A stretch of DNA of 61,126 nt, counting the filler, from Squatina squatina (lineage: Eukaryota), in NCBI GenBank assembly GCA_031763465.1. It is 4 parts of 4 records of this genome, joined end to end, with 100 filler letters (N's around TTAATTAATTAA, not from the genome) between each part and the next. Parts side by side here need not be neighbours in the genome. Positions count along the whole stretch, not along the records: positions 47,291 to 61,126 come from JARFOE010000219.1; 3 more parts are not named here. One strand, written 5' to 3'. A model generated the notes under the pieces. It was not told the DNA's origin, did not search any database, and saw only the letters and a list, made by a program, of their open reading frames with translations. The position numbers and the translations under genes were made by a program. Position 1 is the first letter of the stretch, and each line of letters begins with the position of its first letter. Shown here piece by piece: positions 22,370 through 53,823 of this stretch.

Positions 22370-22800
22370 AATGCTATTTGGAAGTCCATGTACATCCCAT
22401 CAACCACATTGCTCTCATCAACACTCTCCGGTACCACATCAAAAAACTCAAATTAGTTAAACATGATTTGCCGTTAACAATTCTATGCTGGCTTTCCTTA
22501 ATTAATCTACATTTGACCAAGTGACTGTTAAGTTTGTCTCTGATTATCGTTTCTAAAAGCTTCCCCACTACCAAGGTTAAGCTGACGGTCCTGTAGTTCC
22601 TGGGTTTATCCTGACACTCTTTTTTGAACAAGGCTGTAACATTTGCAATTCTCCAGTCCTCTGGCACTAACCCTATATCTAAGGAGAAATGGAAGACTAT
22701 GGCCAATACCTTTGCAATTTCCACCTTAAATACCCTCAGCATCCTAGGATGCATCCCATCCTGTCTTGGCGACTTATTTACCTTAACTACAGCCAGCCTT
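22370..22800 (-). mobile_element. CR1 LINE RT fragment
   Basis: Translates to HPRML...VPEDWRIANVTALFKKECQDKPRNYRTVSLTLVVGKLLETIIRD...ESQH...GKSCLTNL. Confidence 0.9.
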
Positions 22801-24580
22801 TCCAGCTGGGCACCAATAGCAGCACTAATCCATTCAAATTAAACTGGTCAGCATTCTATCAAAATACAGGTTAGAGATATTAGATTTCAGCACTTTAATA
22901 TTCATACACTAATATTGCACATGGTAATTCTAAACTTCGAAATGTGTTTATAACTTCCCAATATAAAATCCAGGTTAATTCAATACATTCATCTCTAAGA
23001 CAATCTTTCCAAGAAACGTTTTACCTTATTGCACTGAAACTAATTCGTGCATTTAACTTCGCCATTTGCAACACACAGTCACAATTAACAGGTGTACAGG
23101 ATGGCAAGTTCTTCATTCAGCTACAGGTACACTGCAAATGTAAGCTACACTCCTGGTAAATCCGCTCATTTTTCACGACACGCTCTGTTGAACTATGATA
23201 ATTACTGGTATACCACACACCTTCTTACTGGGTTGATCACTTTCTCAAATTAACATTTACGATCCAACCGATGCACAACTAATATCTCCAACGGTCCTTG
23301 ATATCGACGAGAGAAAGCGTGCGATTTCGGTCCATTGATTAAAGCAAGTCCAAAAATGTTACTTTTGTATCGCTACACATTTTCATTATTTTATCATGTG
23401 AACATTCGAGTGAATTTACCTGAAACGACACTTGAAACACCTTCTTTGNNNNNNNNNNNNNNNNNNNNNNNNNNNNNNNNNNNNNNNNNNNNNNNNNNNN
23501 NNNNNNNNNNNNNNNNNNNNNNNNNNNNNNNNNNNNNNNNNNNNNNNNTTAATCAGCAAGGTGCACTGACAGCTACAATTGACCAATTAATAGTTTTGAT
23601 ACTCCTGTTACCTTACCTTTAATGCAGACCACTGCCATCCTGCAGTAATAGCTTTTCAATATTTCATGATGTAAAATGGAATGTATGCCTAATGAATATG
23701 AATGACAGGCTGATTAAATGCAGTGCAATGCGCACCACTGTGTCTTCAAAGAGTAAAGAGTGTAGCAAATATGATAATTTTGTGGAACATACAGGGCAGC
23801 ATTCTGAAATAAAATAGAAATTCAATGCAATGTCAATAAAAGGTTGTTTCATAAGCTCATTACAAAGTCTTACTGGAATACTACAGCAAATCCTCTTCCC
23901 TACCTTGTTATTTTGTGAGAGAGAATCCGATTTGTGTGTCCCACAACATAAGACAAAAATAAAAACTGCAAGAAAAAGACGCATTAAAGAGCACCAGAGT
24001 GATGCTACCTTATCTTTGTGGAAGGGAACAGTGATGACATTGTTAAGAACTTACTTAGGACAATCTGAGACTATATAATGACTTGTGCTACAGAAATGTA
24101 TTTTTGTACAGTTCCGAGCAACTTAAAATCAGTTTCAACCACATAAGGAATCAATTTTATTGTCAACAGTCTGAATGCTGAATTTTCAATCATTTGCTTG
24201 TCTACATGTATACAAAACTGGATTCCTTCCAGTTTATTTTCTTGCTATGTTTTGAGTAAGAGAAACGAAGTATGAACTTTCCATCGGTAACATTTTGTTG
24301 CCTTCTTCATTTTAGTTCAGTAGTGACCCATAATTTTCAGAGCAGAAACTGCAAAGCCCATAACAATGAACAAATCATTTACACTGTTATAAACAACACC
24401 ACTGTGCAAAAGTGAAGTGTCCTTTTGAAAAATGTTTCTCCGTACCTTGTTAAACGACTACCTGAAGTTAACTAAGGTATNNNNNNNNNNNNNNNNNNNN
24501 NNNNNNNNNNNNNNNNNNNNNNNNNNNNNNNNNNNNNNNNNNNNNNNNNNNNNNNNNNNNNNNNNNNNNNNNNNNNNNNN

Positions 24581-25544: not shown

Positions 25545-26015
25545 ATCCTTCACACTGTCCTGGGACAATCCAACACAATGCAGCTTCTTTGGATGAAGGT
25601 GAAATACCTTTGAAAAATGAACAAAGGTCTATTAATGGGTGTCAGGGTGAAATCTTGCCAGCTTTACCTGTCAGCAGTGACACTGTGGTAGATTCTGAAA
25701 GCACAGAAACAAACCATCAATCTAGTTCCACAGACCAGGATGGTGCTGATTCCCTCAAAGAGTATGAATCTTGTGAGATCCAAAATGCAGACTCATTTGA
25801 AATGGTCCATTTTGATGGTGCCAAAGAATTGTGCAATTCATCTGCTACACACTTGACTTTTGAGAAAATTCCGTCAACAACAGAAGCTCAAAAGGATGAT
25901 GTGGACCTCGGAGCTTTCCAGCAAGTTCTAGACAGCTTACAGAAGAGACAACTGAATGTCAGTCTTTTTGAAAAGATCAGGAAAGTCTATGGTGATCTGG
26001 AATGTGGATACTGTG
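25545..26015 (+). CDS. ZFAT: ZFAT (zinc finger and AT-hook domain protein), 3' part of the large internal exon; 5' part lost in a gap
   Basis: An open frame ends AFQQVLDSLQKRQLNVSLFEKIRKVYGDLECGYC-G|GTAAG. This matches the ZFAT motif LQKKQMNTSLCERIRKVYGDLECEYCGK, which precedes a C2H2 finger split by a phase-1 intron. Confidence 0.9.
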
Positions 26016-26639
26016 GTAAGAAATAGTCTATACTGACATTGTTAAATTTATCAGTTGAAACATTTATCTTTCACATGCCAAACGGCATTTAGATTTTTTT
26101 TGATTTTACATTCACTCAGAAAGTATTCCTCAGCTGTGTTTAAATCTATATTCTCTACCCAGCCAGCAGATGTCCTCTATGTATCTGACTGCTAATTGTG
26201 TTCAGTGTAACTGTTCACATGGAGTCACAGATGAAGCAATAAAAATAATATTCTGACCTATTAACTGTATTTGATGATCAATATGCTTTTGGTCACTAGA
26301 GGCAAATAAACATGGTTTCTAGTCAAGTAAACTATATTGCGATGTGAAGCATTAAGTTTTGTAAGTTGATTTAAGTTCCTCCGGGTAAATATGGATGCAA
26401 AGATTCTGGGGAAGAATTTAACATAAACTCAGAGATGGGCTACAAAAATAATGCTAACAAACAGGAAAAGAACACAAGATTAAAGATGACGAGAAGTATT
26501 AACAAAAAATACAGCCGAACATCTATGACTTGATGAAAGTAAAGGTTAGACCAAAGGAATAAGGGTAACACCAACAGTTAGGGAACAAATACAGTTTTAA
26601 AAGTAAAGTATAAAAGTACTGTTATAAATAAAATAAATG

Positions 26640-28095
26640 GAACAAATATTAAAAACAAATTAAACTGCATGTACAGCAATGTACACAGCATCCAAAATAA
26701 AATGGGGGAACTGGAGGGAATAATATGTAGCAAGGAACCAGATGTCGAAGGAATAACTGAAACATGACTACACAAAATACAATACTGGCAACTAAATATT
26801 GCAGGCTGTTACATAATCAGAAAGGATAGGAAAAGGAGAAGAGGGAGTGGGGTAGCTGTACTAATTAGAGATAACATAATGTCAATAGAAAAAAGGACGT
26901 AATTAATAGAAGGATAGAAACAGAATCCATATGGATTGAAATAAAAGATAAGAAGGAATCAATCATGCTTAATAGGGGTATACTACTGACCACCGAATAG
27001 TTGAAAGGAGGTGGAAGAAGAAATATGTAAGTAATATGTGAAATGAGTAAAGAACATGTAGTAATAATCATGGGAGATTTTAACAATCCCTTAATAAACT
27101 GGCAAGAAGAGGTAGTAAAAGGGGTACAGGGAATGGAGATTTTACAATATGTGCAGGACTCCTTTCTTACCCAGTATATAAAAAGTCCAACAAGAGAGGG
27201 TGCACTGCTGGATCTAGTAATTGGAAATGAACCAGAACAGATAAGTGAAGTAAGCATTGGGGAACATCTAGGCAATAGCGATCACAACATCATAAGGTTT
27301 AAGATAAAGATTGAGAAGGACATAAGTAAGACAAAGACCAAATTAATAAATTGGAAAAAATGATTTAAAGGAGATGAGAATGGATCTTGGGAAAATAAAA
27401 CATAAAAAAATAGAACAGCGGTGGGAAATATTTAAAATGGTAATCAATAGAGTGCAGGAAAATATATCCCACTAGAAAGCAAGAACAAACTAGTCATGCC
27501 ACACCATGGATGACTTAAAAAATAAGGGCAAAATTGAAACTAAAGAAAAAGACATACATTAAATACATAGACAACACAGGAAAGGGAATATGAAAAGGTT
27601 AGAAAGAAGTCAAAAAAACAATTAGGAAGACAAAGAGAAACTACAATATTAAATTATCAAGGAATATATAAAGAAATAGTAAAGTATCCCACAGACCTAT
27701 AAATAACAAAAGAAAAGTCAGGATAGGGACAGTGTCACTAAGGGTTGTACACAATAAACTCAGAGCTAATGATAGTGAAATGGCATCCACGAATATTCAA
27801 AGAAGTTAAAGAGATAGCAGAGGCACTATTATTTATATATATATATATATATATAGACTGGCAGACAGCTAGTGTGATTCCTATAATTAAAGAAGAGATC
27901 GAGCAAGTCCAGGGAACTATTAGCTTAATGTCGGTGGTGGGAGAAATAATGGAATCTTCACTCAAAGATGATACAGAAAATCATTTAGAAACTGAAAATA
28001 TAATAAACAACAGTTGGCATGGATTTCAAAAGGGAAGTCATGCTTGTCCAATCTTATTGAATTCTATGAAGAAGTAGCAGGAAGGGTAGACAAGG
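26640..28095 (+). mobile_element. Long degenerate CR1 LINE (APE endonuclease to RT start)
   Basis: Motifs LNCMYSNVHSIQNKMGEL...ITET, IIMGDFN..INW, PTREGALLDLV, LGNSDH and DWQTASVIPI...HGFQKG, with many stops and frameshifts. Confidence 0.92.
27834..27855. repeat. (TA)n microsatellite inside the CR1
   Basis: Directly visible. Confidence 0.9.
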
Positions 28096-43740: not shown

Positions 43741-44174
43741 AAATGGGTCTTCAACGTTGCCATAAAGACAATGGGTGAATCGTGCCAGATTCAAAAAGAA
43801 CTTGCCAAAGAATTGCAGCTATTAAAAAAAAATACAAACTACCATGTACAGATGACTTCTGAATATCACAAAGGGAATACAGGAGTTAAAACATTTTCAC
43901 ACAAAATATACATTGCATTTGAACTCCTGAACTGTTAATGGAATTCACCAACAACTTACATTTATATAGTGCATTTAACATATTAAATGCCCCATTGGAG
44001 AAAAACCAGCACCACGGAGTAGTAAAAGATAAGAGAGATGACCAAATGCCTAGTCAAAAATATAGGTTTTGAGTNNNNNNNNNNNNNNNNNNNNNNNNNN
44101 NNNNNNNNNNNNNNNNNNNNNNNNNNNNNNNNNNNNNNNNNNNNNNNNNNNNNNNNNNNNNNNNNNNNNNNNNN

Positions 44175-44410
44175 CTAGATTCCCCTGCCATCGGGAACAT
44201 CCTCCCTGCATCTAGTCTGTCCAGTCCCGTTAGAATTTTATAAGTTTCAATGAGATCCCCTCTCATTCTTCTAAATTCGAGCGAATACAAGCCTAACCGA
44301 CCCAATCTCTCTTCATACGCCAGTCCTGCCATCCCAGGAATCAGCCTGGTGAACCTTCGCTGCACTCCCTCCACGGCAAGTACATCCTTCCTCAGATAAG
44401 GAGACCAAAA
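44175..44410 (-). mobile_element. CR1 ORF2 C-terminal fragment
   Basis: Translates to EGVQRRFTRLIPGMAGLAYEERLGRLGLYSLEFRRMRGDLIETYKIL. Confidence 0.9.
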
Positions 44411-44759
44411 CGGTAAGGGTATTAAGGGTTACGGAACCAAGGCAGGTAGATGGAGCCAACGGTGGGGACAGGCTTGAGGGGCTGAATGGCCACCTGCTGT
44501 TCCACAGCGCAGGGGGTGGGCTGAAGGGTGTCGGCAACAGCCCAGGTATGAGTCACGATCTCTCAAGATTACTAAAAAAAAAAGCACTCGAGAGAAAAAC
44601 AGGAAGTGTTGTTTGCTTGTGACCCCAAATTCTGAGAAAGGTGAAGAAGCTGCAAGCACTGGTATAACATCCTGCTATTAAAACAACCCCGCCTGTGCCA
44701 CTGGCTGCCCCACCACCCCAGGCCGACAAACTCTGTCTCCATTCTTCCCCACAACAAAA

Positions 44760-49880: not shown

Positions 49881-50755
49881 TGCAGTTTACTAAATTATAA
49901 AATGCACTTAACTGAAAATGCTGAAGTGTAGACGTTTAGTGCCAACTTAAATTTTTCTGATTGAGCCACAACAATCAAAAACCAGGATTATGGCATTTTG
50001 TGAACAATGAATCTTTAAAAGTTTGCACTCTCAATCACTTCTGTGGTATTCATTTGACACTTCAAATATTCATCCATATTTTTCAACTAACATGACAGAA
50101 CAAAGGACTCCCCCACTAATTGATGTGCTACTTTAACTTTATAAATAGCCTATATTGTAGTTTTTACTCACTAATCCTACAGAGCCAAAATGTCATGCTC
50201 AAAGCAGCAATAAATTCCAATAACCAACTTTGTACTAATAGCTGAATTTCAAACATCCTACATCTAAAAAAAAAAATCCCACTATTTAATTAACTCTTAT
50301 GCTGCCAGTAATACTATAAAAGATTCGTCAGATACTGCAACTTAACTCATGTTTGGAACAAGTTTTAAAGTCTACTTCAGTCTGTTCTGAAAATCAGACT
50401 GAAGGGTAAGTGCCAACATTTTTAACAAAGAATCCAGTGAATCCATGCCAATTTCTACTCAGAGGGGGGCAAAAAATGCGTCTGCAATATTACAAACCAT
50501 AAATATTACATTTTATGTATTCGCAATTTCAGAAGTCAATGCTTCAAACAAAATTAGCATTAATTAAAGTATTATTTAGCTCAATNNNNNNNNNNNNNNN
50601 NNNNNNNNNNNNNNNACTGCTGTATTTAAAAGCGCGCTGAACGACCTATTGTAAATCTAAAGTGAGATTCACTCAACGAGCACGCCTTGTTCTTAATGCG
50701 ATTTCCAAAGCATCTCTGCAGTCTGTGCGCGTTGCCGACCCCCACCCCCCTTTAC

Positions 50756-50990
50756 CTGCGGATGCAGTTGCCTTGGTAACAGGCTGTCCCCTGGAGTCTG
50801 ATACAAGCGGCTGCTTCACCTCGGCTCGCCAGCTCTCTGCTGCTGCAGCTGCATCCCCGCCAGCAACAGCCACCCCCGCCTGCGGACTGCCACCGACACC
50901 ACGACCACGGTCACGGTCAGTCTGCTCAGGACCCTCTCCTTCGCTCCACTCTCCCTTTGCAAACTGCTGGACGAAAGGATTGTTCGCCAT
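50756..50990 (-). CDS. RTN1: RTN1 (reticulon-1) isoform A, coding part of exon 1
   Basis: MANNPFVQQFAKGEWSEGEGPEQ...GSPQAG...SDSRGQPVTKATASA-G|GTAAAG: 235 nt, phase-1 donor. It resembles human RTN1A exon 1 (..W...GEGE...PQAG...SPVAMETAST-G). It is also divergent from LRRC9, matching the known RTN1-LRRC9 synteny. Confidence 0.8.
50767..50780. promoter_or_regulatory. RFX X-box GTTGCCTTGGTAAC inside the RTN1 coding exon
   Basis: Matches GTNRCC-N(0-3)-RGYAAC and is near-palindromic. Confidence 0.6.
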
Positions 50991-51059: not shown

Positions 51060-51145
51060 TTTTCACTCCGACTCCCCGCCTCTCTGTACGCATGTGAAAA
51101 TGGCTTGTTTGGTTCAATGTTTCTACCCTGACGTCACATGTGGGA
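51060..51145. promoter_or_regulatory. RTN1/LRRC9 promoter motifs: GC box and a full CRE overlapping an E-box
   Basis: CCCCGCC at about 51074-51080, TGACGTCA at 51129-51136 and CACATG at 51135-51140, about 140 nt upstream of the RTN1 ATG. Confidence 0.5.
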
Positions 51146-52092
51146 GGATGAACTAAAAGATTGAGATGGCTGATGGGAATCATTCCGACTACAACTCAAT
51201 GTAAATATTTATATACTGGAAATAAATCAATACAATTATCAACTTGCCAGTTTTTTAAAAACATTTTTAAAACATTAAAAGCATTGACTATTTCTAAAAT
51301 GTTATAAGCGTATAATTACACTGGAGTCACTGCAAGAAGTTGTTCATATCTGAATTTTTAAAATCCCATCTCTGATCTGTACTCGCATACCTAACCGATG
51401 CCTGCGCGATCATGTTTTATTTAACGCCCCTCCTTAGGACTGAAATGTAGCCCTTGGGTTTTTACCATCCGCTCGTACATTTATGTCCCACCCATTGAGA
51501 CTGGTGGAATTTTGACCAGAATAAGTGGATCCATATGGCACCGCCTTTTTTATCGCCCTTTTGTCCATGGTGGAGATTTTCTTCACCACGTACGTATTTG
51601 GAAAGTACAAAAAATTGATCTACCTTCTGCTCAGGTCTTCTCAATTGTCATGCATGTTTACAGATCTGATTATAAACAATAACAACTTGAGGCAGTTTAT
51701 TTGTAGTACAGTCTGAGCCCCAGAAAACCGACTTGTCAGATTCCTAATTATAATGTTTGGAGATGATGACCATGAAACCTGCAATGGTATGCTGGCAAAA
51801 GTGAGAAACTGTTAATGCCATTGTTTTACTTTAGTGGACCATGACACAGGTAGTTTCTGTTTGCAAAAACAAAATTAACAGAACAAGATACAATCGACAC
51901 ATTAATTAATTGTCTCCATTCTGGAAATAGGTTGATAAAAATCTCTCTTCCCTAAAGCTTTCTGGTTTAGTAGTAAGGTATAGTACTTCACAACAGAAAG
52001 GTACCTTGTTGGTAAGTACACATGGTCTTCTAGTGAGATGATCATTTAGATTAGCTATTTATATCAATAACTGTTCTAAATCAAAATGAATG

Positions 52093-52141: not shown

Positions 52142-52976
52142 GAGAAGCCTTTATAATGGGAACAGATGTTGCTGTATAATTGTTGAAAAGAACAGGCACA
52201 AAGTAGACAAGAAATACATTTTTCAGGTATCTGCAAAAAGTTAATTATTAAAAATTATCAAGAAACTATTCATCTAAACCTGATAGAGAAATCACCAAAT
52301 ACGAACAATTAAGTGCACTAGCATACAACTTTAAAAAAAAACTGCATTACACAAGTACATTCTATCTCAAATAAGTTAAATAGAGATGAAGCATCTAATG
52401 TCCAAAACTTGCTACATACTACACATGCCACAAACCCCTATATACTTGCAGAATATATAATACTCCAAGCAATCTTTCATTAATTGGCTCGAGAGAGTCA
52501 AATATATGATGGGGGTGTAAAACTGCAGTGGAATACAGAGCAAGAATTATGATCAGACACACTTTATTCAATCACTGCAACTTGTCTTTGCATAGTAATA
52601 GAAAAATAATGAACACGCTANNNNNNNNNNNNNNNNNNNNNNNNNNNNNNNNNNNNNNNNNNNNNNNNNNNNNNNNNNNNNNNNNNNNNNNNNNNNNNNN
52701 NNNNNNNNNNNNNNNNNNNNNNNNNNNNNNNNNNNNNNNNNNNNNNNNNNNNNNNNNNNNNNNNNNNNNNNNNNNNNNNNNNNNNNNNNNNNNNNNNNNN
52801 NNNNNNNNNNNNNNNNNNNNNNNNNNNNNNNNNNNNNNNNNNNNNNNNNNNNNNNNNNNNNNNNNNNNNNNNNNNNNNNNNNNNNNNNNNNNNNNNNNNN
52901 NNNNNNNNNNNNNNNNNNNNNNNNNNNNNNNNNNNNNNNNNNNNNNNNNNNNNNNNNNNNNNNNNNNNNNNNNNNA

Positions 52977-53604: not shown

Positions 53605-53823
53605 TGTATATCTAATGCATTGTCATATGAGAGGATTGCTCAGGAAGGACCAGGAGTCACTGAACTGGAAATGTTTTTCTCGGGATATCCTCGAATGGTG
53701 GGACTGCTATACTTCCCAAATTTAGTTGTTCTTACATTAGTGAAGCAGAATATCAGACGAATCGAAGGTTTAGAAGCATGTCCTTTGCTTACTGAACTAT
53801 GGATCGTAGAGTCCCACTTAGCG
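53605..53823 (+). CDS. LRRC9: LRRC9 exon (N-terminal LRR region)
   Basis: tttctatttgtcAG|CISNALSYERIAQEGPGVTELEMFFSGYPRMVGLLYFPNLVVLTLVKQNIRRIEGLEACPLLTELWIVESHLA|GTGAGT. Matches LRRC9 CLCNGLSYE...LEMFF.GYPRIVGL..FPNL. Confidence 0.92.

Follow-up and report, generated by a model that had tools for sequence, protein, structure and literature searches.

Besides encoding protein, the end of the first coding exon of RTN1 is likely to double as a gene switch. From sequence comparison we predict a dual-coding RFX site there, with a probability of about 0.7; this figure sums the reading in which RTN1A is the main target, to which we give even odds, and the one in which the site serves LRRC9 or both genes. 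The motif, an X-box palindrome, stands in the RTN1A reading frame and is retained in three vertebrate classes, and the substitutions that fall on it track its degeneracy. The window, by which we mean the whole 61-kb stretch of DNA analysed, is a draft scaffold from a cartilaginous fish, broken by 40 runs of N; its features are listed in Table 1.

Table 1. Features around the X-box, in window coordinates.
Feature	Positions	Strand	Remarks
RFX X-box palindrome GTTGCC-TT-GGTAAC, RTN1A codons V-T-K-A-T	50767..50780	.	No other site in the window is free of mismatches
RTN1A (reticulon-1a) first coding exon, 78 codons + 1 nt	50756..50990	-	ATG at 50990, donor after 50756
Exon-end block (X-box, TGCATC flank, CAG/GTAAA donor), DNA-conserved in shark, teleost and bird	50751..50783	-	
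TGCATC flank, the same in all three classes, two fourfold-degenerate sites included	50761..50766	-	Outside the 14-bp X-box and not accounted for by it
5' splice site CAG/GTAAA	50751..50758	-	CA would fit the spectrum of residue 74 (A, T, P = NCA codons)
Non-coding RTN1 promoter block, 23 of 24 bases equal to the bird locus	51087..51110	-	Holds GCCATTTT and an E-box; bird counterpart L003:1870-1893
CRE palindrome TGACGTCA, upstream of the RTN1A ATG	51129..51136	.	Present in the teleost promoter too (L002:700-830)
Possible upstream LRRC9 exon piece	51835..51849	+	WTMTQ, similar to the Heptranchias N-terminus, ends at GT; weak, E 0.025
Probable LRRC9 start (ATG, M-N-T-L), inferred	52609..52620	+	Preceded by an acceptor-like AG; cut off by a 355-N gap
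LRRC9 coding exon, residues 24-96 of the Heptranchias protein	53605..53823	+	
Four further LRRC9 exons	between 56073 and 60878	+	

As the preliminary description had proposed, the consensus X-box GTTGCCTTGGTAAC (50767-50780) lies within the RTN1 coding exon, where the minus strand reads GTT ACC AAG GCA AC(T) in the RTN1A frame; all four degenerate third positions of these codons carry the consensus base. The exon is 86% identical to Pristiophorus reticulon-1a (P0001) over 78 amino acids, and across 28 reticulon-1a proteins of sharks and rays its frame shows 58-86% identity. The X-box lies 210 nt below the RTN1A ATG, and 11 nt separate its end from the donor. One skate protein model (P0023) suggests a 5' UTR of at least 60 nt, and the promoter motifs are found 100-150 nt above the ATG. 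No later RTN1 exon was found in the 61-kb window. A second GTTGCC half-site was observed in intron 1 (50731-50736, plus strand), 20 nt from the donor; in the alignment it has no clear teleost or bird counterpart.

The site is the sole match to GTNRCC-N0-3-RGYAAC, the consensus of Emery as quoted in PMC5838959, among the 57,049 non-N bases of the window. The loose consensus match by itself is within the chance range, with 0.4 matches expected from Markov simulations and one seen. For the perfect palindrome GTTRCCNNGGYAAC the same simulations gave an expectation of 0-0.017, and one was seen, at the exonic site. Of 20,000 synonymous recodings of the exon under the window's own codon usage, 75 produced the perfect palindrome and 2,071 the loose Emery consensus. 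Because the shark site was chosen for matching, these recoding and simulation figures are no test on their own.

To examine the site in orthologous DNA, we scanned metagenome contigs with a degenerate pattern, which returned three loci; a strict pattern returned none. The degenerate pattern fixed the third base in codon 3 (G) and in codon 4 (A/G), so that orthologs breaking these two positions could not be returned; in V, codon 2, T, A and S any third base was allowed. L002 holds exon 1 of a teleost rtn1a (86% to Labrus) and L003 that of a bird RTN1 (98% to P0066), while L001 was rejected as a chance bacterial match. Orthologous codons that break the X-box would have spoken against the preliminary description; both orthologous exons found retain it at the DNA level, as GTTGCTATGGAAAC in the teleost and GTTGCCATGGCGAC in the bird. 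The Emery consensus is matched by the shark and bird sites; the bird site matches it exactly on its reverse strand, and its synonymous change falls on the consensus N. The teleost site is one base off, at a position where the validated sites of FGF1 and MAP1A deviate as well. No X-box in any of the three loci has fewer mismatches than the exonic one.

The Val codon is GTT in all three DNA sequences. Recoding gave a probability of about 0.007-0.014 for a broad-consensus match in both non-shark lineages, a value that becomes somewhat higher when the bases fixed by the pattern are allowed for. As a control, three chance bacterial matches (two of them identical) lacked GTT, and none fits the broad or the Emery form, although the permissive consensus form of this analysis fits one of the three. 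Scans with the search pattern gave two chance matches in prokaryote genomes and none in viral contigs. The proposed constraint on synonymous positions was also seen: three fourfold sites are identical across shark, teleost and bird, the three sequences that make up the whole DNA-level comparison. Two of these sites lie outside the 14-mer, and the chance that both would be identical in all three sequences is about 3e-4.

We then compared 94 RTN1 proteins carrying the end of exon 1, consisting of 85 of 114 search matches and 9 others; 29 proteins (same-species isoforms, unnamed duplicates and models without the exon) were left out. The set comprises 17 cartilaginous fishes, 16 ray-finned fishes, 1 lungfish, 1 caecilian, 1 mammal, 9 reptiles and 49 birds, with no frog, human or lamprey. 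At the five positions of the motif the residues were V (93) and I (1); T (47), A (40), S (4) and V (3); M (77), K (16) and L (1); A (76), E (17) and T (1); and T in all 94, which yields 11 distinct pentapeptides. The VAMET peptide, ascribed earlier to human RTN1A, is documented as the mammalian state by one rodent. The broad X-box form GTHNYY-NN-RRNAAC stems from work in worms. Codons that satisfy the strict Emery consensus exist for 71 of the 94 peptides; for a symmetric form the number is 89 and for the broad form 93, the symmetric and intermediate forms having been defined after the orthologs were known. The looser forms are required by the E, S and V variants and by VSLTT of the lungfish, which fits the broad form alone; IAMAT of the snake Candoia fails even this one. 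The earlier claim that both peptide versions fit the X-box holds for VTKAT, whereas the E-bearing half-site GGAAAC breaks the quoted RGYAAC consensus. GGAAAC is present in the validated MAP1A site and in a de novo RFX motif.

Substitutions were reconstructed by parsimony on a tree built without the motif columns, with expectations taken from RTN1's own substitution spectrum. The five motif columns took 23 changes, 16 of them at position 2. The broad allowed set took 22 of the 23 changes against 16.5 expected (P 0.002), the symmetric set 19 against 9.7 (P 1e-5), and the strict Emery set 14 against 7.2 (P 0.0009), in line with the expectation that substitutions stay within the degeneracy of the RFX motif. 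With changes within birds removed (n=18), the counts were 17, 14 and 10 for the broad, symmetric and Emery sets (P 0.009, 0.0006 and 0.017). The swaps K>M and A>E each occurred twice at the motif; elsewhere in RTN1 they have shares of only 2.3% and 3.2%. Position 2 changes at the rate of an unconstrained column, and its column (68) is the sole one of 213 fast columns confined to A/S/T/V and the only fast column with slow columns on either side. A protein constraint to small residues could mimic part of this pattern. The change A>V, a transition that would give a perfect half-site, was seen nowhere among the 94 proteins.

The description of the site as the best-conserved island of the exon was correct in part. 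Among five-residue windows of exon 1, VTKAT took 23 changes, against at least 30 for all windows away from the island, but the lowest windows, KATAS and ATASA (8 changes each), extend past the X-box. The island is retained in a copy annotated rtn1b, and a pattern search found no such motif in RTN2/3/4-like and invertebrate reticulons among 144 further representatives.

If the island were instead a short protein motif of the RTN1A N-terminus, V-x-x-x-T-A-S, its likeness to an X-box would be due to chance. The conservation of A72 and S73 outside the X-box is consistent with this, as is the presence in RTN1A exons 2-3 of other, more conserved islands, one of which (VPTVT) is also broadly X-box-compatible. 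In a control with the broad form, the windows compatible in at least 90% of 35 rows numbered 2 of 2,126 in RTN1 and 0 of 4,505 in LRRC9, and the two RTN1 windows were the X-box site and VPTVT (compatible in 34 of 35 rows). With the two stricter forms no window reached 90% of the 35 rows, the X-box site included. Protein constraint leaves synonymous bases free, yet three fourfold sites are identical in the three classes, and the K/M and A/E swaps are chemically radical as well as rare elsewhere in RTN1. We consider a protein motif improbable as the explanation.

Because bony vertebrates carry (A/T)-M-(A/E) at the center of the site, we also considered translation of a shorter RTN1A from an in-frame internal ATG with strong Kozak surroundings (RCC ATG G). 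The teleost and bird DNA have a purine at -3 and G at +4, and six database protein models start at the motif Met, although these may be merely truncated. The ATG is not conserved: the window shark and 16 of 17 cartilaginous fishes have Lys and the lungfish has Leu. Moreover, an internal start leaves the invariant V and T unexplained. This explanation appears very improbable.

Splicing is a more serious competitor to the dual-coding reading, because the block of frozen DNA reaches as far as the donor. The constraint extends beyond the 14-mer X-box, and the identity of the two outer fourfold sites suggests that something beyond the 14-mer is conserved. The TGCATC flank may be a preferred RFX flank or a splice signal; several validated X-box sites are followed by TG (PMC5838959 Table S5). 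The splice donor would account for the last codon, and the last 11 exonic bases are probably held additionally by splice-site constraint. Donor position +5 is A (GTAAA, 50751-50755), a non-consensus base common to shark, teleost and bird. It is thus conceivable that the exon end is frozen by an enhancer together with this donor and that the X-box match is a by-product: the three-class identity spans the motif, TGCATC and the donor, residue 74 varies among A, T and P only and is thereby limited to NCA codons, and annotated isoforms join RTN1 exon 1 to several different downstream exons. Exonic splice signals are reported to constrain about 15-20% of fourfold sites strongly (PMC6169883). Splicing, however, predicts neither a palindrome, nor confinement of changes to degenerate positions, nor nearby RFX peaks, and the exon end has no stable RNA structure (z +0.79). 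An RNA hairpin was rejected on the same value. Overall, the substitution pattern favors the motif and the reach of the block to the donor favors a share for splicing, and we judge splicing as the main cause to be quite unlikely. The proposal that the island is kept for DNA binding rather than for protein sequence is in keeping with the X-box in both orthologous exons, with changes that follow its degeneracy and with mouse RFX1 and RFX3 peaks less than 1 kb downstream of the Rtn1 start; the continuation of the frozen DNA to the donor speaks against it as a complete account.

The promoter module of RTN1 (51087-51136) is deeply conserved as well, with a CRE and a TGAAC(C/T)AAA motif common to shark and teleost and a 24-nt block common to shark and bird. 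The spacing between the CRE and TGAAC(C/T)AAA is 12 nt in both fish promoters, and the bird contig has no CRE within 284 bp upstream. We take GCCATTTT, within the 24-nt block, to be a YY1-like motif.

In the teleost locus (L002:506-1732), rtn1a and lrrc9 stand head-to-head, with the first coding exon of lrrc9 at 1676 on the opposite strand and 1.17 kb from the rtn1a ATG (506). The probable shark LRRC9 ATG lies 1.8 kb from the X-box on the same contig, and the head-to-head distance of the two shark genes is probably 1.6 kb; a shark counterpart of the teleost first coding exon was not found by tblastn. Between 53605 and 60878 the window contains five LRRC9 exons, corresponding to residues about 24-96, 562-609, 915-977, 1090-1123 and 1259-1335, and because 100-N gaps lie between them, distances across these gaps are not real. 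The many gaps, the presence of only five LRRC9 exons and the lack of any RTN1 exon after the first had at first raised the suspicion that the closeness of the genes is a scaffolding artefact. This was dropped in view of the compact teleost arrangement and the probable shark LRRC9 start on the same contig. The head-to-head neighborhood is probably real and old. In salmon, lrrc9-rtn1a is a region of large effect on migration timing with its strongest signals intergenic, and RFX goes unmentioned in the accessible part of that preprint (bioRxiv 10.1101/2024.03.30.587279).

This closeness in fishes makes the proposed regulation of LRRC9 by the site possible. Under one version of dual coding, an old head-to-head promoter, the RFX-bound site would act chiefly on LRRC9 or equally on both genes. 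Besides the short distances, it is consistent with this that the exonic site was the best X-box of the RTN1-LRRC9 interval in a motif scan of both fishes, that it is the sole zero-mismatch X-box in the 1.8-kb teleost locus, and that LRRC9 is RFX-dependent in mouse (PMC7498320) and frog (PMC3889689). On the other hand, two weaker X-box half-sites in the teleost interval (1199 and 1638) are nearer to lrrc9 than the exonic one, and the island persists in the copy annotated rtn1b. Mouse Lrrc9 has RFX1 and RFX3 peaks of its own at +494 and +499, neither of which is assigned to Rtn1 under the 5-kb upstream rule (PMC7498320), and in Xenopus, where LRRC9 is a direct Rfx2 target, the summit and the model start of LRRC9 are 9 bp apart (PMC3889689). 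Action chiefly on LRRC9, or equally on both genes, is unlikely in our view, and the link to LRRC9 is not needed to account for the site. Since LRRC9 shows an RFX peak of its own in both mouse and frog, we regard RTN1A as the likelier target. Further observations point to RTN1A: the site accompanies RTN1 into amniotes, it is kept in the rtn1b copy, and the RTN1 promoter carries the CRE and the 24-nt block. From the peak assignment, the mouse Lrrc9 and Rtn1 starts would be more than about 4.5 kb apart. We take the actual distance to be about 33 kb.

Published occupancy data place RFX peaks near the mouse Rtn1 start. In mouse ependymal cells an RFX1 peak at +768 and an RFX3 peak at +714 are assigned to Rtn1 by GREAT (PMC7498320 Table S8); these could lie in intron 1 rather than on the exonic motif. 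At least 7 RFX1, 2 RFX2 and 9 RFX3 further peaks are located deeper in the gene, so that the gene body holds at least 8 RFX1 and at least 10 RFX3 peaks according to the same table. The peak at +143.6 kb is numbered RFX1_5 and would be among the strongest if the numbers are ranks. In RFX knockout ependyma Lrrc9 was down (log2 -1.38), and Rtn1 is absent from the accessible part of the differential-expression table (PMC7498320); rtn1 is likewise unlisted in the accessible part of the frog study (PMC3889689). Functional human X-boxes concentrate at -500 to +500 of the transcription start (PMC5838959). In human neurons RFX3 promotes CREB binding at neuronal promoters, and RTN1 is not named in the main text of that report (PMC11888390), the part of it considered here. 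RTN1 and LRRC9 are absent from the supplement files of PMC5838959 (5) and PMC4542305 (2), and the supplement of PMC4634137 has expression rows only.

From these data we infer RFX1/RFX3-type binding at the exact site, with CREB cooperation in neurons and RTN1A as the main target. An RFX dimer would occupy the exonic palindrome some hundreds of bases past the transcription start and would likely raise RTN1A transcription, with CREB at the upstream CRE as its presumed partner in neurons. As the codons belong to a fast-evolving exon, the RTN1A protein would tolerate whatever residues the motif permits, such as K or M and A or E. In fishes, where the LRRC9 start is within 2 kb head-to-head, the site may serve LRRC9 too. 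A bolder version, which we regard as doubtful, is that the RFX site predates the split of sharks and bony fishes and has since dictated five RTN1A residues, with the radical K/M and A/E swaps only at degenerate positions. The site would then have been the master switch of an ancestral head-to-head promoter joining an ER-shaping gene of neurons to a gene of cilia, and a separate site would have been gained later by tetrapod LRRC9.

Elsewhere in the window, positions 25545-26018 (plus strand) form an open exon that ends in KVYGDLECGYCG followed by a GT donor and resembles the start of a C2H2 zinc finger. It had no Pfam, atlas or PDB match, and it may resemble ZFAT. Since this exon is placed where RTN1 intron 1 is expected, the scaffold may join unrelated contigs. 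Three segments (22374-22838, 27031-28077 and 44054-44428) presumably are fragments of CR1/L2-type LINE retrotransposon frames.

Selection on codon-embedded factor sites is disputed, and the evidence comes mostly from genome-wide statistics. The RTN1 site is a single, very old and editable example where silent and amino-acid changes alike appear to track a known motif. If the dual-coding reading is true, silent or missense variants in RTN1 codons close to the exon 1 end could have regulatory effects, and the long RTN1A isoform would be tied to the RFX3 neuronal program and possibly, in fishes, to the cilia gene LRRC9. Exonic factor sites ('duons') were reportedly described by Stergachis in 2013, and that work is said to have its critics. 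Both exonic factor sites and X-boxes downstream of transcription starts are already known, and the RTN1 case is a new and very old example; no description of an exonic RTN1 X-box was found in the openly available papers and supplements searched.

Among known X-boxes downstream of the transcription start are those of MAP1A (+33 to +80) and MYC (+522; PMC5838959 Table S5). Like them, the RTN1 site is a palindrome of 14 bp with 2 bp as spacer, probably some hundreds of bases into the transcribed region, and the half-site variants of its orthologs (GTTTCC, GGAAAC and AGCAAC) occur in validated sites (PMC5838959). Unlike them, it lies in coding sequence, is traceable from sharks to birds and is a predicted site. 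Exonic transcription-factor sites are a known kind (bioRxiv 10.1101/2021.09.06.459186), and, as in duons, the RTN1 codons double as a predicted factor site in a region where the protein is under little constraint. In contrast to duons, which are genome-wide statistical sets of disputed selective weight, this is a single site with frozen synonymous bases and motif-tracking non-synonymous changes. The RTN1 gene further resembles the neuronal promoters co-bound by RFX3 and CREB (PMC11888390) in that 350 bp separate an X-box from a CRE around the start of a gene expressed in neurons; it differs from them in that RTN1 goes unnamed in that main text and in the CRE-less upstream stretch of the bird contig. 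In mouse ependyma and frog epidermis LRRC9 itself is a direct ciliary target, bound by RFX and dependent on it, but there, unlike at the RTN1 exonic site, the peak is located at LRRC9's own start (PMC7498320, PMC3889689).
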